Source of the DNA: Candidatus Saccharibacteria bacterium RIFCSPHIGHO2_12_FULL_41_12
Lineage (GTDB): Bacteria; Patescibacteriota; Saccharimonadia; Saccharimonadales; 2-12-FULL-41-12
Assembly: GCA_001790445.1 (NCBI GenBank)
Contig: MGCQ01000001.1
Span: 40,462-104,461, forward strand
Direction: 5' to 3'
Length of the DNA: 64,000 nt
The stretch's first letter is position 1. Each line of letters opens with the position of its first letter. Below, piece after piece: positions 1,701 to 55,692 of the stretch. Under the pieces are notes generated by a model. The model searched no databases. It was not told the DNA's origin and saw only the letters and a program-made list of their open reading frames with translations. The translations under genes and the position numbers were made by a program.

Positions 1701-2536
1701 TGGCCATTAAGCAATACAAGCCAACTACACCCGGACGACGTGGCATGACCAGCCAAGATTTTGACGGTATTACGACTAAAAGACCTCTAAAATCGCTTTT
1801 GGCGGTTAAAATACGCGGTTCCGGCCGAAACAACCAAGGTCGCATCACTACTCGCCATAAAGGCGGAGGTGCCAAGAAATTTTATAGGATTGTTAACTTT
1901 AATCTTCCGGCAGGAACAGAGGCCACTGTCGAACATATAGAATATGACCCGAACCGTAGCGCCAGAATTGCCAGAATCAAAGATCAAAATAACCAGTATC
2001 ACTACATACTTGCCCCATTAAAATTAAATCAGGGGGACAAGATCAGCGTTGGAGAAGAAGTCTCAATAGAAAATGCCAACAGACTCCCACTGTCGAGTAT
2101 CCCTACAGGTAGTGTTATTCATAGTATCGAGGTAAACCCAGGAAAAGGCGCTCAGATGGTGCGAAGTGCAGGGACTAGCGCTCAACTAGTAGCAAAAGAA
2201 GATAATTACGCACAGATCAAGTTGCCTAGTGGCGAGGTACGACGAGTTCTTCTAATCTGTATGGCTAGCATAGGAGTTGTTGGTAATGAGCAACACCAAA
2301 ACATCAAAATCGGTAAAGCTGGTAGATCACGCCATAAAGGTATTAGACCGACAGTCCGTGGTGTCGTGATGAATGCAGCTGACCATCCTCATGGTGGTGG
2401 AGATGGAGGCCGTCACGGTATTGGTGGTGATCCACGTACGCCTTGGGGCCAGAAAACGTTAGGATTTAAGACCAGAAGTCGTAAGAAAGTCAACAAGCTA
2501 ATTTTAAGAAGCAGACACATAGGTAAAAGGAAGTAA
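1700..2536 (+). CDS. rplB: 50S ribosomal protein L2
   Basis: KPTTPGRRG and DHPHGGGDGG motifs. TAATG overlap with rplW. Confidence 0.96.
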   Translation: MAIKQYKPTTPGRRGMTSQDFDGITTKRPLKSLLAVKIRGSGRNNQGRITTRHKGGGAKKFYRIVNFNLPAGTEATVEHIEYDPNRSARIARIKDQNNQYHYILAPLKLNQGDKISVGEEVSIENANRLPLSSIPTGSVIHSIEVNPGKGAQMVRSAGTSAQLVAKEDNYAQIKLPSGEVRRVLLICMASIGVVGNEQHQNIKIGKAGRSRHKGIRPTVRGVVMNAADHPHGGGDGGRHGIGGDPRTPWGQKTLGFKTRSRKKVNKLILRSRHIGKRK

Positions 2537-2537
2537 A

Positions 2538-2654
2538 ATGCGTATAACGAATAAAGTAGACCGTATAACGGAAAATAAAATAATCTTGACACTTCGGAAT
2601 CCCGTACCACGTACTACTTTATACGTACTACAGCAACAGGAGGTTGCCCGATGA
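2538..2654 (+). repeat. Structured intergenic insert, copy 1 (117 nt; 38-codon mini-[41 protein letters not shown])
   Basis: Shares the CGTATAACG 5' arm, the TTATACGTACTAC 3' arm and the GCAAC-AGGAG-GTTGC hairpin with copies 2-5. ATG lies 1 nt after the rplB stop; TGA overlaps the rpsS ATG (ATGA). Confidence 0.8.
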
Positions 2655-2926
2655 GTAGATCACTGAAAAAAGGACCATTTATAGATCCAAAACTTGCAAA
2701 AAAGGTAGCTGCTCAGGTTAAAGATGACCGAACAGTAATAAGAACATGGGCACGATACTCTGCAATTTCACCTGAATTTGTCGGTAAAACTATAGCTGTT
2801 CATAATGGCAAAGTTCATGTTCCTGTGTTTATTACGGAAAACATGGTGGGGCATAAACTTGGTGAATTTGCTCCGACACGTAAATTCCGCAGTCACGGTG
2901 GCAAACTAGCGAAAGGTCAAAAATGA
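2651..2926 (+). CDS. rpsS: 30S ribosomal protein S19
   Basis: [10 protein letters not shown]...[27 protein letters not shown]. Confidence 0.96.
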
Positions 2927-3033
2927 GTATAACGAATAAAGTATACCGTATAACGGAAAAGGCTGAATTACTAGTTCAGCCCGTAATACGTAATACGAAC
3001 CCCGTACTACAGCAACAGGAGGTTGCTCGATGA
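2923..3033 (+). repeat. Structured intergenic insert, copy 2 (111 nt; 36-codon mini-[39 protein letters not shown])
   Basis: ATGA overlaps at both ends (rpsS stop and rplV start). Central hairpin GGCTGAA/TTCAGCC at 2961-2981. Confidence 0.8.
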
Positions 3034-3470
3034 GTGTTAAGGCTGTCGCAAAAAACGTGCGAATTAGTCCTCGCAAAGTAGCGATTGTAGCTGGGCTTGT
3101 GAGAGGACGATCTGTTGAAGATGCTCTAACTATTTTATCTCATACCCCACGTCGTTCTGCTACAGCGGTCAAAAAAACTATCGAAAGTGCTAGAGCAAAC
3201 GCCGAGAACAATCACAACTACAAAGCTGAGACATTACAGATTGTCTACATTAGCGTAACGCCAGGGACAAAACTTAAGAGATTTCGTCCAGCAGCTCATG
3301 GTCGAGCGCTACCATTCCAAAGAAAGTCCAGCCATATAACTGTTCATGTTGACGGAGAAATGCGCGGTTCAAAGAAAACCGACCAAAGCGGCAAAGAGAC
3401 AAAGAAAGAAGCTAATCCTGCGACCAAGAAGCCAGATAAAAAGAAAATTACAAAGAAGGAAACCAAGTAA
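3030..3470 (+). CDS. rplV: 50S ribosomal protein L22, with Lys-rich C-terminal tail
   Basis: ISPRKV motif and operon position. Confidence 0.93.
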   Translation: MSVKAVAKNVRISPRKVAIVAGLVRGRSVEDALTILSHTPRRSATAVKKTIESARANAENNHNYKAETLQIVYISVTPGTKLKRFRPAAHGRALPFQRKSSHITVHVDGEMRGSKKTDQSGKETKKEANPATKKPDKKKITKKETK

Positions 3471-4717: not shown

Positions 4718-5005
4718 ATGGCGAAAACATTAACCGGCACTGTGGTGTCAACTAAAGCAAATAAAACTATTGTAATTGAAGTACATGCACGAAAAACTCA
4801 CCCTATCTATAAAAAACAATACTCGGTTACCAATAGAATAATGGCTCACGACGAAAATAGTCAGGCAAAGATGGGCGACAAAGTCACTGTTGTAGAAATT
4901 CGTCCAATATCAAAGAACAAACACTTTGCTCTCAAAAATGTTCTGTCACATGCAGCACTTACAAAAGAGGACAAAGCAGTAATTGACCAAGAGGAGGTTG
5001 CTTAA
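4718..5005 (+). CDS. rpsQ: 30S ribosomal protein S17
   Basis: [22 protein letters not shown]. The ATG at 4718 has an AAGGAG upstream; the ORF-track start at 4697 lies inside rpmC. Confidence 0.92.
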
Positions 5006-6562: not shown

Positions 6563-6958
6563 ATGGTATCTACAGATCCAATATCAGATATGTTAACGAG
6601 AATACGCAATGCAATAGCTGTGTCAAAAACACAAGTTGAAATGCCATATTCAACTGTGAAGTTTCGGGTTGCTGGAATTTTAAAAGACAATAATTTCCTT
6701 GACGATGTCTCACAAAAGGGAGAAGGCATAAATAGAAAAATTGTCGTAACCATCAACACAGAAAACTCCAATGCGCGTATTACTGAGATAGCAAGGTTGA
6801 GCAAACCCGGACGAAGAAAATACGTCAAAGCTGACCAAGTCCCAACCGTCAAACGTGGACGTGGTATTGTGATAGTTTCTACGTCAAAGGGTCTTATGAC
6901 AGGCGCTGAAGCAAAGAAAACCAACATTGGCGGAGAATTAATTTGTCAGGTATATTAA
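6563..6958 (+). CDS. rpsH: 30S ribosomal protein S8
   Basis: DPISDMLTRIRNA motif. ATG 6563 follows AAGGAG 6553-6558. Confidence 0.94.
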   Translation: MVSTDPISDMLTRIRNAIAVSKTQVEMPYSTVKFRVAGILKDNNFLDDVSQKGEGINRKIVVTINTENSNARITEIARLSKPGRRKYVKADQVPTVKRGRGIVIVSTSKGLMTGAEAKKTNIGGELICQVY

Positions 6959-6959
6959 C

Positions 6960-7070
6960 ATGAGTATAACGAATAACGTATACCGTATAACGGAAAAGGC
7001 TGGATTACTAGTTCAGTCCGTAATACGTAATACGAACCCCGTACTACTGCAACAGGAGGTTGCTCGATGA
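6960..7070 (+). repeat. Structured intergenic insert, copy 3 (111 nt; mini-ORF MSITNNVYRITEKAGLLVQSVIRNTNPVLLQQEVAR)
   Basis: Differs from copy 2 at only 4 positions. ATG lies 1 nt after the rpsH TAA; TGA overlaps the rplF ATG. Confidence 0.8.
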
Positions 7071-7606
7071 GTCGTATAGGAAAACTACCAATCAAAATTG
7101 AACCTGGTGTGACAATCACTGTTGACAATGATTTTGTGCGTGTCGAGGGGCCCAAGGGTAAACTTGAACAGTTCACCATGCCTGACGTCAATATTGAGCA
7201 AAAAGATGGAGAGATAATTGTCACAAGAGAAAATGACGAGATAGAAAATAGATCAAAACATGGTCTGATGCGTTCATTAATCCAAAATATGATAATAGGA
7301 GTGACAAAAGGGTTCGAGAAGCAACTAGAAGTCAACGGAGTTGGGTTTCGGGTTGCACTTGCTGGGACTGATCTCAAGATGAATCTTGGTTTTTCTCATG
7401 AAGTTGTTTATCCTGTTCCGGAATATGTAAAAGCTGAAGTTAAACAAAACGTGATTACTATTTCTGGAATAAGCAAACAACAAGTTGGTCAGGTCGCAGC
7501 CGAAATACGTTCTCTAAAAAAACCAGAGCCATATAAGGGCAAAGGTATCAAGTATGTTGGCGAAAAAATTATACGAAAAAGTGGTAAATCTGGTAAGGAC
7601 AAATAG
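7067..7606 (+). CDS. rplF: 50S ribosomal protein L6
   Basis: MSRIGKLPI N-terminus; PEPYKGKGIKY motif. Confidence 0.95.
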   Translation: MSRIGKLPIKIEPGVTITVDNDFVRVEGPKGKLEQFTMPDVNIEQKDGEIIVTRENDEIENRSKHGLMRSLIQNMIIGVTKGFEKQLEVNGVGFRVALAGTDLKMNLGFSHEVVYPVPEYVKAEVKQNVITISGISKQQVGQVAAEIRSLKKPEPYKGKGIKYVGEKIIRKSGKSGKDK

Positions 7607-9243: not shown

Positions 9244-9585
9244 ATGAGTGAAAAAAGAATACGCGTGACAGAAGTTTCCTTTGACATTTTAGACATGTTA
9301 CTAAGAGGCAGAGATGATAAAAGCTTAAGTGAACTGGGCGCAGAAGTTTTTATTGTGGATGATCTGGAAGATGCATTTTTTTTGCCGAGAGGTGATGATA
9401 GAAGTGATTTAAGTTTGTTCTACAGCTGGTTTAACAAGCGAACAAACGGAGATACCGCATGGTTCGATCAGATTGCCACCCACCCCATACAATACGCATT
9501 TTCAGACTACGGACGAGAAGTTCTGGAACGATTCATGAAAAAAGACGCTCGGTTGCTAGGTGCTCAAGCCCTTGAAGCAGCATAA
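9244..9585 (+). CDS. Hypothetical acidic protein (113 aa) inserted between rplO and secY
   Basis: Only long ORF in the gap; AAGGA 8 nt upstream; no recognisable motif. Confidence 0.55.
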   Translation: MSEKRIRVTEVSFDILDMLLRGRDDKSLSELGAEVFIVDDLEDAFFLPRGDDRSDLSLFYSWFNKRTNGDTAWFDQIATHPIQYAFSDYGREVLERFMKKDARLLGAQALEAA

Positions 9586-11489: not shown

Positions 11490-11606
11490 ATGAAAGTACG
11501 TGCAAGTGCCAAAAAAATTACAGCTGATGACAAGATCGTTCGACGAAAAGGACGTGTCTATGTAATTAACAAACTAAAACCTAAGCACAAACAGAGGCAA
11601 GGCTAA
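11490..11606 (+). CDS. rpmJ: 50S ribosomal protein L36 (Cys-less form), 38 aa; too short for the ORF track
   Basis: My translation: [38 protein letters not shown]. Position between infA and rpsM. Confidence 0.92.
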
Positions 11607-11608
11607 AA

Positions 11609-11725
11609 ATGTGTATAACGAATAACGGGTGTCGTATATCGGAGAATCTTAAACACAAAGAAGTTTTTGCCGTAATACGTAATACGAGCTACGTAATACA
11701 GAAGCAGGAGGCTTCTCGTGGCTAG
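11609..11725 (+). repeat. Structured intergenic insert, copy 4 (117 nt; mini-[41 protein letters not shown])
   Basis: ATG lies 2 nt after the rpmJ TAA; TAG 11723-11725 overlaps the rpsM GTG 11718 by 8 nt. SD hairpin GAAGC-AGGAG-GCTTC covaries with the other copies. Confidence 0.75.
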
Positions 11726-13152: not shown

Positions 13153-14115
13153 ATGAGCAAAACAATTCACTCACCAGGAGTAGTCAAAGTAGAGGAGATA
13201 ACGCCTTACAACGCTACACTATCGATAGAGCCACTTCATAATGGATATGGCATGACATTAGGGAACAGCTTACGTCGTGTTTTGCTTTCCTCTATCTCAG
13301 GAGCTGCTGTGACCGGTTTCATGATAGAAGGGGTTAGTCACGAATTTACTACTATTAAGGGAGTTCAAGAAGACGTTGTCGATATTATTTTGAACCTCAA
13401 AAAAATACGGTTTCGAGTTTTTTCTGACGAGCCGCAAACGCTTAAATTGACCAAAAAAGGTAAAGGAACAGTTACCGCAAAAGATATTGCAAAGAACGCA
13501 AATGTAGAAATTGTCAATCCAGGCCAAAAAATTGCGACAATTGGTGAAGATAAAGGATCTATAGCAATAGATCTTATAGTAGAAACAGGACGTGGTTACA
13601 AAAGTGTAGAAGAAAATGCTAAAAACCAACATATTAGTGACATGGTTTCTATTGACGCGATATTTACTCCTGTACACAGGGTGCGCTATAAAGTAGAGAA
13701 CACTCGTGTTGGGCAAATGACTGACCTTGATAAGTTAATTATTACAATCGAAACTGACGGCAGTATCACTGCAAAAGAGGCTTTTGAAGAAGCTAGTGCA
13801 ATTTTGATTAATCAATACACAGCACTTGCTGGTCAAACACGAATAGAAGCAACAGCTGCTCTTAGTGCGTCTGCGCCAGAAGGGGCATTTGAAAAAGAAG
13901 CGGATACAGATTTCGATGATGGTGAATCTGCTCTGATGACTTCTATCGAAGATTTGAATTTATCAGCTCGCACAACAAATGCACTTGTAAATAACGATAT
14001 ACACACTCTTAAAGATTTATTTAACCTCAGTGATGTTGATCTAAAAGAACTTAAAGGTTTTGGTAGCAAAGCACTTGATGAGGTTAAAGACAAGATGGCG
14101 GAGTTGGAATTCTAA
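13153..14115 (+). CDS. rpoA: DNA-directed RNA polymerase subunit alpha
   Basis: N-terminal domain (LEPLHNGYGMTLGNSLRRVLLSS) and C-terminal domain (LNLSARTTNAL). Confidence 0.96.
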   Translation: MSKTIHSPGVVKVEEITPYNATLSIEPLHNGYGMTLGNSLRRVLLSSISGAAVTGFMIEGVSHEFTTIKGVQEDVVDIILNLKKIRFRVFSDEPQTLKLTKKGKGTVTAKDIAKNANVEIVNPGQKIATIGEDKGSIAIDLIVETGRGYKSVEENAKNQHISDMVSIDAIFTPVHRVRYKVENTRVGQMTDLDKLIITIETDGSITAKEAFEEASAILINQYTALAGQTRIEATAALSASAPEGAFEKEADTDFDDGESALMTSIEDLNLSARTTNALVNNDIHTLKDLFNLSDVDLKELKGFGSKALDEVKDKMAELEF

Positions 14116-14116
14116 A

Positions 14117-14233
14117 ATGTGTATGACGTATAACGAAGAACGTATAACGGAATATTCAAAGCAGGTCGCTTCCGTAGCGACCTGGCGTGATACTTTATAC
14201 GTACTACTGCAACCAGAGGTTGCTCATGCATAG
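14117..14233 (+). repeat. Structured intergenic insert, copy 5 (117 nt; mini-ORF MCMTYNEERITEYSKQVASVATWRDTLYVLLQPEVAHA)
   Basis: ATG lies 1 nt after the rpoA TAA; TAG 14231-14233 overlaps the rplQ ATG 14226 by 8 nt. Central 9-bp hairpin at 14162-14184. Confidence 0.75.
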
Positions 14234-21725: not shown

Positions 21726-21802
21726 TGGAGCCACCTGTCGGATTCGAACCGACGACTTTCAGTTTACAAAACTGACGCTCTAACCAACTGAGCTAAGGTG
21801 GC
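21726..21802 (-). tRNA. tRNA-Thr (UGU), CCA encoded
   Basis: Reverse complement folds as GCCACCT...AGGTGGC-T-CCA, with anticodon loop TT-TGT-AA. Confidence 0.9.
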
Positions 21803-21810
21803 AAATGTAA

Positions 21811-22224
21811 TTAAGGTTTAGACTTTATATACTTAAGCTTTCGCCAAGCTCTACCTTTACACTTGTTTAAATTTCTATAACTTGGAGTGAGCGAATGACA
21901 GTTAGGGCACAATAAACGTAGATTACTTTCGTTATTGTTTTCAGCATCTCCATCTATATGATCTACTTCAAGCGGGGAATTTCCTGTAACTCTATTTGTT
22001 TTGTTCCAGCCACAAAATGAGCATGCTTGTTTGTTTTTCTCGAGCAAGTATCTACGTATGTGTTTAGAAATATTTCTGGCTGAGATTCCTCTACTGCCTG
22101 TCACTTCATTGTTTTTCCATTTGTTAATGTACTCTTGGTGCTGATAATCTAATTGGCATTGATTTGAGCAGTATATGTACGAAAGTTTTGCTTTTCGATT
22201 ACTGCACATTATGCAATATTCCAT
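21811..22224 (-). CDS. HNH endonuclease
   Basis: EVDHIDGDAENNNESNLRLLCPNCHS HNH core plus N-terminal Cys-rich region. Confidence 0.85.
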   Translation of the reverse strand: MEYCIMCSNRKAKLSYIYCSNQCQLDYQHQEYINKWKNNEVTGSRGISARNISKHIRRYLLEKNKQACSFCGWNKTNRVTGNSPLEVDHIDGDAENNNESNLRLLCPNCHSLTPSYRNLNKCKGRAWRKLKYIKSKP

Positions 22225-30651: not shown

Positions 30652-31080
30652 ATGGCAGAAAAAAAGATCAAAGCGAATTTAAAAATGAAAATTCCAGCCG
30701 GCAAAGCTAGCGCAGGGCCACCTGTTGGTTCGACCCTCGGTCAATATGGCGTTAGCATGATGGATTTTGTTAATCCATTTAATGAAGCCACTCGCGACAT
30801 GGGCAATGTTACGGTTACGGCGCATATTACGGTTTACGAAGACAGAAGCATGAAATTCCGTGTTGTGGGAGCCCCAACAGACGACTTAATTCGGGCAAAG
30901 TTGGGCATTGCTAAAGGATCTGGCAAACCAAACACAGAGAAACTGGAACAAAAGCTATCGCAGACCGACCTGAAATCTATTGCAGAAGATAAGGCCCAAG
31001 ATATGAACACCGACGACATTGAATCAATAAAGAAAATGGTTGCTGGCACAGCCAGAAGCATGGGAATCGAGGTACAGTAA
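30652..31080 (+). CDS. rplK: 50S ribosomal protein L11
   Basis: IPAGKASAGPPVGSTLGQYGV motif. Confidence 0.95.
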   Translation: MAEKKIKANLKMKIPAGKASAGPPVGSTLGQYGVSMMDFVNPFNEATRDMGNVTVTAHITVYEDRSMKFRVVGAPTDDLIRAKLGIAKGSGKPNTEKLEQKLSQTDLKSIAEDKAQDMNTDDIESIKKMVAGTARSMGIEVQ

Positions 31081-31388
31081 TGGCAGTTGTAAGTGGCATG
31101 CCGTCAGATCGCAAAGGGTTTGAAAGAAACGCAGGATTTAATACATTTGCCAAGAATATTAGAGCTGCAGCGAACAGAAGTGGTCTGCCCTTAAGAGATT
31201 CAAGTTTGTCGCGGGAAACACCAGCTAACGGGCAATACATACCCAAAAGTGTGCATGAACTCGCAGAACTAGCTACGCAAGCTATTGTTGAGAATAATGA
31301 TCGATATCGAGGTTTATCGGCTAGCGCAAGAGCCTTACAGGTGGCAGAAGACGCTGCTAATGCATTTACGAATCAGGAAGCCAAATAA
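31080..31388 (+). CDS. Hypothetical protein (102 aa) inserted between rplK and rplA
   Basis: TAATG start/stop overlap with rplK. No recognisable motif. Confidence 0.5.
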   Translation: MAVVSGMPSDRKGFERNAGFNTFAKNIRAAANRSGLPLRDSSLSRETPANGQYIPKSVHELAELATQAIVENNDRYRGLSASARALQVAEDAANAFTNQEAK

Positions 31389-54414: not shown

Positions 54415-55098
54415 TTAGATTATCTTTCGATTTAATTCATCTTTATTGTACGTTCTTTTGCCAAAATCGTCAACTCTTTTCGCTCCTCTATTAAAGCTAT
54501 ATCTATTCAAATTATCTTTAACGACCGAAACAACGTATACTTTATCCCCTAAATCATCAATGATCTTTTGTACGTTGTTCGGCACCTCTTCGCATGCTTT
54601 TAAGAATCCTTTTCTTTCGATACCTCGTTTTGTGTCAATTTCTCTTGCTTTAGTAATATCCCAAGCCACAAGAGGATCTTGATAGATATAGAATAAGCCA
54701 ACAAAGTATCCATGGTTAAGAGCTCTTTGAATATTGTGTGCACCTTTGCTATGAGCAAAGGTGCCGTCTAGAGCAAAATTATATTTCTTTTCTGTGACAA
54801 TATCTAGAGTCTTCTCGATTATTGGATTAGCTGAATCGCGATACATATAATATTTGTCAGCACTATAATTTTCAAAATATTCCACGATAGTATCTAGGTC
54901 AATTTTGACGAATGGATCAGGTGAGCTTGCGAGAAATTGCTCAAGGAACTCTGTTTTTCCTGCTCCTGGAATACCTGCCATAAAAATAGCAATAGGCTTA
55001 TCTACAGGCACCGCACCTGAAGCTGAAATAATCTTTTCAGCTATCTTCTTACGATTCTTCTTTGCCCATTCTTTATTATTGATAACCCTCATGTTCAC
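54415..55098 (-). CDS. Zeta-toxin-family P-loop kinase-like protein
   Basis: Walker A FMAGIPGAGKTEF; ~227 aa with zeta/AAA_33-like layout. Confidence 0.7.
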   Translation of the reverse strand: MNMRVINNKEWAKKNRKKIAEKIISASGAVPVDKPIAIFMAGIPGAGKTEFLEQFLASSPDPFVKIDLDTIVEYFENYSADKYYMYRDSANPIIEKTLDIVTEKKYNFALDGTFAHSKGAHNIQRALNHGYFVGLFYIYQDPLVAWDITKAREIDTKRGIERKGFLKACEEVPNNVQKIIDDLGDKVYVVSVVKDNLNRYSFNRGAKRVDDFGKRTYNKDELNRKII

Positions 55099-55163
55099 TA
55101 TTATACTTCAAATTCATGACCGTTTAATATATAATTAACACCTGTAGTTGGTGGAAGCTTGAA

Positions 55164-55240
55164 GGTCGAATCCCTCCACTTAACAATTCGAACCCCCACG
55201 TTAGGGTATAATAATGTGTGTTGATGGGATGTGGCCAAGT
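55164..55240 (+). repeat. Direct repeat unit a (T-arm remnant, promoter, and 5' start of tRNA-Gln)
   Basis: Appears identical by eye to 55363-55439 (offset 199 bp). Confidence 0.85.
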
Positions 55241-55377
55241 CGCACTGGCACCAGTTTTTGGTACTGGCATTCGGGGTGAGAACTGCCAGTCGGCAGTTTG
55301 CAAGGAAATCTTCCGATGCCAACTGGTTTGGCAATCGCGAAGTTTCGGACCTGCCAAAGGTAGGTCGAATCCCTCCA
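55225..55377 (+). pseudogene. tRNA-Gln-derived pseudogene interrupted by the 87-nt module E1
   Basis: The 5' half matches tRNA-Gln except for the D-loop. The insert follows GCATTCGGGG. The 3' acceptor strand (CACTTAA) cannot pair with TGGGATG. Confidence 0.7.
55277..55363 (+). repeat. 87-nt structured module E1
   Basis: 80/87 identical to E2. Hairpins AACTGCC/GGCAGTT and TGCCAA/TTGGCA. Confidence 0.8.
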
Positions 55378-55439
55378 CTTAACAATTCGAACCCCCACGT
55401 TAGGGTATAATAATGTGTGTTGATGGGATGTGGCCAAGT
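55363..55439 (+). repeat. Direct repeat unit b
   Basis: See unit a. Contains TAGGGTATAAT (-10 at 55406-55411) 12 nt upstream of the intact tRNA-Gln. Confidence 0.85.
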
Positions 55440-55498
55440 GGTAAGGCACCAGTTTTTGGTACTGGCATTCGGGGGTTCGAATCCCTCCATCCCAGCCA
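55424..55498 (+). tRNA. tRNA-Gln (UUG), CCA encoded
   Basis: TGGGATG...CATCCCA-G-CCA, anticodon loop TT-TTG-GT, T-arm GGGGG-TTCGAAT-CCCTC. Confidence 0.9.
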
Positions 55499-55536
55499 TC
55501 CTCTGTTGTGACCCGTTTTGGGTCACTACGGAGGAT
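55498..55536 (+). other. Hairpin immediately 3' of tRNA-Gln
   Basis: ATCCTC/GAGGAT outer stem and GTGACCC-gtttt-GGGTCAC inner stem. Confidence 0.5.
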
Positions 55537-55572
55537 AATTGTGGATCAAGAGGGATCCGAACACCCGAGTGT

Positions 55573-55692
55573 GCATTCGGGGCGAGGACTGCCTGTCGAC
55601 AGTTCGCAAGGAAATCTTCCGATGTCAACTGATTTGGCAATCGCGAAGTTTCGGACCTGCCAAAGGTAGGTCGAATCCCTCCATCCCAGCCA
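55573..55692 (+). other. tRNA-Gln fragment: GCATTCGGGG, module E2 (55583-55669), then T-loop and correct 3' acceptor strand with CCA
   Basis: The flanks match tRNA-Gln exactly, apart from G for T at the first T-loop base, but no matching 5' acceptor, D arm or anticodon arm lies upstream. Confidence 0.7.

Follow-up and report, generated by a model that had tools for sequence, protein, structure and literature searches.

Among the short repeats that lie within bacterial operons, mycobacterial interspersed repetitive units (MIRUs; Supply et al. 1997) are described as units of 40-100 bp in intergenic regions, co-oriented with the genes, which insert at start codons and contain an internal open reading frame (ORF) that overlaps the neighbouring stop and start codons with a -4 spacing (PMC12548453, PMC3184786). 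Empty as well as filled sites are on record for them, their direct repeats are tetranucleotides and their inverted repeats imperfect, and it has been proposed that the design minimises the effect of an insertion on expression (PMC12548453, PMC3184786). The present study deals with a stretch of 64,000 nucleotides (nt) on a metagenomic contig from Candidatus Saccharibacteria bacterium RIFCSPHIGHO2_12_FULL_41_12, hereafter called the window, in which the S10-spc-alpha string of ribosomal-protein genes occupies the first 16 kb and five inserts, each a small ORF combined with a hairpin that displays a Shine-Dalgarno (SD) sequence, separate genes of that string. Saccharibacteria (CPR/Patescibacteria) possess small genomes and very tight ribosomal-protein operons, and no paper describing such repeats in this group was found in the literature.

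Other small repeats are relevant for comparison. REP/BIME, ERIC/IRU, Correia/NEMIS and MITEs are small non-autonomous palindromes that are gained and lost between close relatives (PMC3184786). Neisseria REP2 and Borrelia IR-A/IR-B are intergenic repeats of 120-180 nt with internal stem-loops, and REP2 is reported there to hold a promoter, an RBS and an ATG codon and to sit upstream of genes as a leader (PMC3184786). Retained copies of the Rickettsia palindromic elements (RPE) stay open in frame, which leaves the translation of essential genes undisturbed (PMC3184786), and repeats of the heptamer TAACTGA in Beggiatoaceae and cyanobacteria lie just upstream of start codons, those of ribosomal-protein operons included (PMC4679880). 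Finally, in the synthetic bicistronic design (BCD) a short leader ORF holds the SD sequence and ends on the target start codon, so that inhibitory structure is removed by the ribosomes that translate it (PMC12548453 ref. 78).

Results

Anatomy of the repeat

We read the five inserts as copies of a start-codon palindromic repeat that is built to be translationally transparent, and give this reading a probability of about 65%. The case is made from the anatomy of the element, the conservation of its frame, the neutrality of its peptide, covariation in the SD-presenting hairpin, empty sites in relatives and the spread to other operons and lineages; translation of the inserts, termination followed by re-initiation and the way of copying are proposed from the sequences. 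By sequence comparison the five copies are one repeat with conserved arms and unrelated centres, the latter in agreement with an original prediction that had been made from the letters of the window. Together with copies found elsewhere they constitute a family of ~80-130 nt palindromic repeats in Saccharibacteria, which carry no gene of their own. The copies of this organism and the genes beside them are as follows:

2538-2654, + strand: copy 1, between rplB and rpsS; 117 nt, 38 codons, TGA 2652-2654 overlapping the rpsS ATG at 2651
2542-2571, 2572-2603, 2604-2631 and 2633-2647, + strand: 5' arm, variable centre, 3' arm and SD-loop hairpin of copy 1
2923-3033, + strand: copy 2, between rpsS and rplV; 111 nt, 36 codons, TGA 3031-3033 overlapping the rplV ATG at 3030
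2927-2956, 2957-2982, 2983-3010 and 3012-3026, + strand: 5' arm, centre (7-bp apical hairpin), 3' arm and SD-loop hairpin of copy 2
6960-7070, + strand: copy 3, between rpsH and rplF; 111 nt, 36 codons, TGA 7068-7070 overlapping the rplF ATG at 7067
6964-6993, 6994-7019, 7020-7047 and 7049-7063, + strand: 5' arm, centre, 3' arm and SD-loop hairpin of copy 3
11609-11725, + strand: copy 4, between rpmJ and rpsM; 117 nt, 38 codons, TAG 11723-11725 lying 3 nt past the rpsM GTG at 11718
11613-11642, 11643-11671, 11672-11699 and 11701-11715, + strand: 5' arm, centre, 3' arm and SD-loop hairpin of copy 4
14117-14233, + strand: copy 5, between rpoA and rplQ; 117 nt, 38 codons, TAG 14231-14233 lying 3 nt past the rplQ ATG at 14226
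14121-14150, 14151-14186, 14187-14207 and 14209-14223, + strand: 5' arm, centre (9-bp GC-rich hairpin), 3' arm (three units) and SD-loop hairpin of copy 5
L001 782-898, ~6.6 kb upstream of window base 1: copy 6, between rpsL and rpsG; 38 codons, TAG 3 nt past the rpsG ATG
L107 6340-6500 (also L108, L109): copy 7, ahead of the gene for an MFS transporter; on a different contig, from the samples that also yielded the window organism
1700-2536, 2651-2926 and 3030-3470, + strand: rplB, rpsS and rplV, neighbours of copies 1 and 2 (ORF listing, translation)
rpsH ending at 6958 and rplF 7067-7606, + strand: neighbours of copy 3 (ORF listing, translation)
rpmJ ending at 11606, rpsM from GTG 11718, rpoA ending at 14115 and rplQ from ATG 14226, + strand: neighbours of copies 4 and 5

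The five frames from ATG to stop, with lengths of 117, 111, 111, 117 and 117 nt, lie where the original prediction had placed them and, as it had held, contain no internal stop; the two other frames hold 2-5 stops each. Its statement that every stop overlaps the downstream start needs to be narrowed: the stop codon does so in copies 1-3, but the TAG of copies 4 and 5 lies 3 nt beyond it, so that the frames overlap the downstream gene by 8 nt and the stop codon itself is clear of the start codon. The rplQ start at 14226 is placed by SD spacing and N-terminal sequence, the mechanically called ORF beginning at GTG 14187. On the upstream side the ATG of copy 2 overlaps the rpsS TGA (ATGA), and in copies 1, 3, 4 and 5 it follows the upstream stop by 1-2 nt.

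From its 5' edge the element consists of an ATG, one base, four (GTATAAC)-like 7-nt units and GG, then a variable centre of 26-36 nt that often forms a hairpin itself, a 3' arm of three or four GTNATAC-type 7-nt units which pair imperfectly with the 5' units, and at the 3' end a 15-nt hairpin, GCAAC-AGGAG-GUUGC, with the SD sequence GGAG(G) in its loop and a distance of 2-4 nt to the downstream start codon. The unit measures ~110 nt, is A+T-rich and was present singly, without tandem arrays, in all copies inspected (14/14), and its arms are imperfectly complementary over ~28 nt, as are the terminal inverted repeats by which MITEs are recognised. Copy 3 is 96% identical to copy 2, and the centre of copy 6 is related to that of copy 5.

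The SD-loop hairpin is fully paired in nine distinct sequences, shows compensatory double changes in three of its five pairs (copy 4 carries the compensated stem variant GAAGC-AGGAG-GCUUC) and has a covariation score that was reached by none of 500 shuffles. Because of these compensatory changes at least the SD module is under selection, and it is for this small hairpin alone that selection at the RNA level is demonstrated. In a same-strain assembly (L003) T>G and T>A occur at the equivalents of window positions 3023 and 3027, in the 3' stem of the SD hairpin of copy 2; these changes would cost the stem one pair and may reflect either variation between strains or a mistake in assembly. The rpsQ 3' end with the rplN ribosome-binding site (window 4979-5002, GTAATTGACCAAGAGGAGGTTGCT) matches the 3' SD module of the repeat at 79% over 24 nt. 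This region is native in the relative L091, and the rpsQ end may be the source of the SD module or may resemble it by coincidence, through coding for EEV.

In three of the five copies the long hairpin formed by the arms exceeds shuffled sequence in stability, with z-scores down to -5.0. Such values count in favour of a cis-acting RNA recruited by the host, in which the hairpin would be a binding or processing site, for instance of a nuclease (RNase III/E-type) or an RNA-binding protein, and would tune segmental mRNA stability or the stoichiometry of ribosomal components, with the mini-ORF as a secondary feature. However, the antisense strand folds equally well or better in most copies; a long structure specific for the sense strand was therefore rejected, the data do not place the long hairpin at the RNA level, and it may represent an inverted repeat at the DNA level instead of a selected RNA fold. 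Further points against the cis-acting RNA are that the apexes are unrelated between copies, with no conserved unpaired motif across them, and that Rfam 15, with its ribosomal-protein leaders, gave no window match at gathering score and stayed empty over 2500-3100 with E allowed up to 10. Where the original prediction had seen selection on the open frame and the RNA fold together, the frame is upheld by the comparative tests given below and the RNA-level part is retained for the SD-presenting hairpin only; its observation that two of the differences between copies 2 and 3 turn Watson-Crick pairs of the central hairpin into G.U pairs was reproduced by direct reading, the changes being 2966 A/G and 2980 C/T, at an A-U and a G-C pair of the apical stem GGCUGAA/UUCAGCC.

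No sense-strand terminator and no convincing promoter was found at the copies, and a role as terminator or promoter was thereby set aside. The apex of copy 2 (2960-2982), followed on the minus strand by TTTTCC, is the sole terminator-like site among the copies and is antisense; the G.U changes of copy 3 would weaken it. An A-mismatch every 7 nt was also considered as a universal rule of the arms and rejected, since most units conform (T opposite in 5/33) but a copy between pilT and pilC (L104), in which the GTTATAC units are perfectly complementary, breaks it.

Copies outside the window and empty sites

The arrangement of the inserts recurs in several independent assemblies, those of the same strain being 99.8-100% identical, and the inserts are thus no assembly artefact. 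A DNA pattern of the 5' arm matched two other Saccharibacteria metagenome-assembled genomes (MAGs; sites L008, L009 and L010), and a profile of the five window peptides, run against 1.84 billion representative proteins, retrieved 12 more ORFs of 35-54 amino acids (aa) with the same layout, for three of which the genomic contexts were fetched (L104, L110, L107-L109). Pattern scans of viral contigs yielded no copy. Besides copy 7 (L107), the copies with known surroundings are:

L008: gatC-gatA-x-gatB operon, in the gap that separates a 139-aa ORF from gatB; 43-codon frame, ATGA overlaps at both ends
L009: in a 23S-5S spacer; four perfect GTATAAC units, TAA in all three frames
L010: within a divergent 5' region; the frame from its nearby ATG is closed
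L104, two copies: in a pilus operon, between pilM and pilN and between pilT and pilC; ATG, frame and overlapping stop kept
L110, full copy: between rpsC and rplP in a distant S10 operon (rplB 69% identical); open, coupled
L110, shortened copy: between rplW and rplB; 78 nt, 26 codons, open, coupled at both ends

The copy in L107 resembles copy 1 most, from which it differs by indels of 9 and 3 nt, and shares with it GGAAGTAA upstream and ATGAGTAG.TC downstream. In the window the former is the native rplB end (last 8 nt) and the latter the native rpsS start (first codons); since these flank the L107 copy, it was duplicated together with its host flanks, and the first codons of the MFS gene in L107 may, to judge from this match, derive from rpsS.

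In the nearest relative found (L091, rplB 91%) only 0-21 nt lie between rplB and rpsS, rpsS and rplV, rpsH and rplF, and rpmJ and rpsM, and in further Saccharibacteria (rplB 88%, 82%, 81%, 78% and lower) the junctions, rpsL-rpsG included, are tight and empty. The inserts are therefore lineage-specific gains at start codons. The gatB site is likewise empty in L103, a 77% relative and the nearest from a GatB-based search for kin of the L008 carrier. Set against the empty sites, every insert lies after the stop of the upstream gene and ahead of the native start codon, with an ATG on either side; the neighbouring proteins are full length, and each copy is bounded by the stop and start codons of its neighbours. 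The flanking direct repeat reads ATGA or ATGC in several copies and ACTATGA (7 nt) in L008. As the element sits flanked by ATG, start coupling is automatic and not in itself evidence for selection. In L008 (~6640-6650) and L009 (~1670-1680), which belong to the same MAG, an 11-mer, GCAAATTTGGT, is found 5' of the element at gatB and 3' of it at the 23S-5S site.

Within the organism the distribution is narrow. A covariance model built from the five copies and run with filters off detected no further copy in the 64-kb window, and copies were likewise lacking in the 8 kb past its right end, in the other sequence of its contig outside the 21-kb ribosomal-protein string (~59 kb) and in the other ribosomal-protein operons of the window (rplK-rplA, rplJ-rplL). 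All six copies on the contig sit between genes of the 21-kb str-S10-spc-alpha string, and sense orientation was observed in 11/11 copies from the DNA search. Concentration and orientation are both arguments for the cis-acting RNA, as are the copies in the S10 operon of the distant lineage L110 and the one in the 23S-5S spacer of L009, where processing stems are usual. They are countered by the rplK-rplA and rplJ-rplL operons without the element, by its presence in pilus, gatCAB and MFS contexts and by its absence from the closest relatives at every junction examined, so that recruitment as a regulatory RNA of the host appears rather unlikely to us.

The open frame and its peptide

Among the relatives examined no orthologous insert was present, and frames are compared across paralogous and out-of-lineage copies, of which those in L008, L104 (both), L110 (both) and L107 retain the ATG and the frame together with the overlapping stop. 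Among the 11 copies that DNA methods retrieved, the nine placed at a gene start all have an open frame, unlike the two in non-coding contexts. When every gene-start copy inspected as DNA is included, 11 of 11 are open in one frame and closed in the remaining two. Four canonical 7-nt units put TAA in all three frames, as realised in the spacer copy of L009, and unit 3 of every gene-start copy carries a sense codon, GAA, TAC, GAC, TGT or TTT, in place of the in-frame TAA. Under a first-order Markov model fitted to each copy the frame was open in 4-12% of trials; for five independent lineages, all open and stopping within the start region, P is ~6e-4, a value conditional on homologous arms held fixed and non-homologous centres and their phase randomised. 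Of 76 alternative frames in the gene cluster, 29 have a stop within 8 nt of a gene start, which makes near-start stops in 6/6 copies unlikely by chance. Two length classes from ATG to start exist, 107/113 nt with a downstream ATGA and 109 nt with a downstream ATGNNTAG, and each matches the sole nearby out-of-frame stop of its target gene; at rplF, rpsG, rpsM and rplQ the alternative out-of-frame choice would extend 19-64 nt into the gene.

These data bear on the possibility of a neutral selfish repeat, which would receive its ATG free from the insertion site, inherit its open frame from the founder and be under no selection for translatability. The flanking ATG direct repeat would then account for start coupling without selection, the arms are homologous and the sense codon at unit 3 is common to the family, and with the 4-17 substitutions counted per compared pair of copies the lack of a new stop is unsurprising. 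Yet the non-homologous centres are all in phase and stop-free, the indels between copy 1 and L107 are 9 and 3 nt long, both length classes fit the one nearby stop of the target gene, the shortened 78-nt copy of L110 is still open and doubly coupled, the copy in the rRNA spacer is stopped in all frames, and the compensatory changes of the SD stem attest selection on at least that module. Neutrality of this kind is accordingly regarded as quite improbable.

The peptide itself is neutral, with no purifying selection on its amino-acid sequence. A check of the dN/dS type, which the original prediction had proposed, gave pN/pS values of 1.0 (copies 5 and 6) and 1.5 (copy 1 and L107), and the four changes between the ORFs of copies 2 and 3 (K6N, E15G, P20S, Q30L) are, as had been noted before, all non-synonymous, with no synonymous one beside them. 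A functional family of micro-proteins with conserved ends and a variable core could be proposed, as N- and C-terminal motifs are conserved in at least 17 ORFs and some of these have been annotated by gene callers. However, the conserved residues coincide with the translation of the nucleotide arms and the SD stem, and the C-terminal alternatives Q..A and K..S never mix, a pattern intelligible only through base pairing. Moreover, the core is unrelated between copies, the mini-ORF peptides have no match in Pfam or NCBIfam, a word-indexed protein search with the concatenated peptides returned nothing, and two indexed peptides are singleton clusters. A dedicated peptide family, which the original prediction had already deemed the weaker option, is thus highly improbable.

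Further observations in the gene strings

Several other small ORFs were encountered in or near the ribosomal strings. The first four entries below have no Pfam match; the last comprises small ORFs (37, 75-93 and 106 aa) coupled by start and stop and unrelated to the repeat, situated between rplB and rpsS, rpsS and rplV, and rplV and rpsC of other Saccharibacteria:

L001 3478-4730: ORFs of 156, 86 and 154 aa between fusA and tuf
L001 6793-7251: ORF of 152 aa between rpsJ and rplC
Window 9244-9585: ORF of 113 aa between rplO and secY
Window 31080-31388: ORF of 102 aa between rplK and rplA
L014, L016, L020 (gap before rpsS); L094 923-1204; L110 1401-1652, 1924-2037, 2425-2745: unrelated coupled small ORFs

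The rplA ORF that follows the 102-aa ORF is unusually long (354 aa), with the L1 domain at residues 156-345 only. The 37-aa ORF of L110 differs in sequence from the repeat, yet it too finishes with GGAGG and a stop directly ahead of the following ATG. Small cistrons seem to be taken up repeatedly at the ribosomal-protein junctions of Saccharibacteria.

Elsewhere in the window, tandem repeats of ~198 nt (55163-55692) contain partial tRNA-Gln copies around one intact tRNA-Gln (55424-55498) and adjoin a zeta-toxin gene (54415-55098, minus strand); the region looks like a remnant of integration events. An HNH endonuclease ORF of 137 aa (21811-22224, minus strand) directly adjoins tRNA-Thr (21726-21802). 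About 5 kb past the right end of the window an 85-aa protein with an RRM_1 domain is encoded (L099 10541-10798); RNA-binding proteins of the RRM_1 type are uncommon in bacteria.

Discussion

If the repeat is translationally transparent, as we propose, its 5'-edge ATG would be the displaced native start codon or a duplicate of it. Ribosomes that end the upstream gene, or load at the old ribosome-binding site, would begin at this ATG, translate the stop-free frame of 26-43 codons through the hairpin, melting it en route, terminate on the next start codon or a few nt past it, and re-initiate there with the aid of the SD sequence displayed in the loop. The peptide would be a by-product of this passage. 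With such a design, which follows the logic proposed for the MIRUs, the repeat could survive at little cost in essential operons whose genes are tightly coupled. That the inserts are a repeat of mobile type with a precedent in MIRUs is a recognition which the original prediction lacked.

Several points weigh against this account. Translation of the inserts is deduced from sequence comparison, and, the arms being homologous, a share of the open frame goes back to inheritance instead of independent selection; GAA at unit 3 has the look of a subfamily consensus. Copies found by protein search are biased towards open frames, and the antisense folding of the long hairpin described above has to be counted here as well. 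With regard to mobility, the target-site duplication is irregular, the fourth base after the ATG matching in 7/12 copies, the host flanks of the L107 copy fit recombination or copying with flanks better than a clean transposition, and Pfam scans of 40 of the 47 window ORFs beyond the ribosomal cluster revealed no transposase (the HNH endonuclease and the zeta toxin mentioned above were detected by the same scans); a Y1 transposase (RAYT) was not found in the window either. Finally, six of the seven copies of this organism are located in one 21-kb ribosomal-protein string, and L110 has copies in its S10 operon also. Because of this concentration in two lineages pure selfishness is inadequate as an explanation; the clustering could stem from local copying, from a bias towards coupled junctions with high expression or from a function for the host. 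A broader version, in which the repeat is a start-codon-homing cassette that spreads via copying at the messenger level or by recombination instead of classical transposition (the L107 copy took rplB and rpsS sequence along) and was co-opted in Saccharibacteria to set translation coupling and subunit stoichiometry in operons for ribosomal proteins and other multi-subunit products, with the heptamer arms perhaps as binding sites of a lineage-specific factor, strikes us as quite doubtful.

In one species a repeat family has entered six junctions of the gene string that is conserved most strongly, and as insertions into the same operon recur in a distant lineage, ribosomal-protein junctions are not untouchable. 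On the practical side, the mini-ORFs are annotated inconsistently as hypothetical genes and the inserts alter the intergenic distances that are used in operon inference; possible uses are as a strain marker and as a natural part for translational coupling in the few genetically tractable Saccharibacteria.

Comparison with known systems

The heptamer repeats resemble the Saccharibacteria repeat in using a 7-nt unit that contains stop triplets upstream of start codons, and cyanobacterial STRR are tandem heptamer repeats of comparable type. TAACTGA heptamers are direct repeats, however, whereas the element described here has an inverted partner array, an ORF and an SD hairpin. Like REP/BIME, ERIC/IRU, Correia/NEMIS and MITEs it is a small palindrome within operons that forms a long hairpin; those families usually affect mRNA stability, termination or promoters and are not systematically ORFs coupled by start and stop. 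MITEs are further known by a regular target-site duplication and a related autonomous IS with the same ends; the direct repeats here are irregular, and no transposase partner was found in the window. From REP/RAYT, a G+C-rich palindrome of 20-40 bp with a GTAG or CGTC tag, the element differs in being A+T-rich and ~110 nt long. In contrast to REP2 it lacks a convincing promoter and is a complete pass-through cistron between two coupled genes, and unlike RPE, which lie in-frame inside genes and become part of the protein, it is a separate cistron between genes. BCD is engineered, the Saccharibacteria repeat natural; if our reading is true, the compact module, in which a pass-through ORF stops on the next start codon and a loop displays an SD sequence, would represent convergence with both BCD and MIRUs.

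The closest likeness is to the MIRUs. Both lie between co-oriented genes of an operon and in gene orientation, both have an ORF that overlaps or adjoins the neighbouring genes at either end, start against stop and stop against start, and both show empty sites in relatives. The flanking repeat is here ATG with a fourth base matching in 7/12 copies and reaches 7 nt in L008, and the host flanks of the L107 copy are longer. On the other hand, the Saccharibacteria repeat is single at each site, without arrays of variable-number tandem repeats (VNTRs), has arms of 7-nt units, a dedicated hairpin with the SD sequence in its loop and a concentration in ribosomal-protein operons, and belongs to another phylum with another base composition (40% G+C in the Saccharibacteria host). 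Judged by host and base composition, sequence homology to MIRUs is unlikely. The pass-through principle is already known from MIRUs, and by analogy the Saccharibacteria repeat would be MIRU-like in its working, but it is not a member of the MIRU family.

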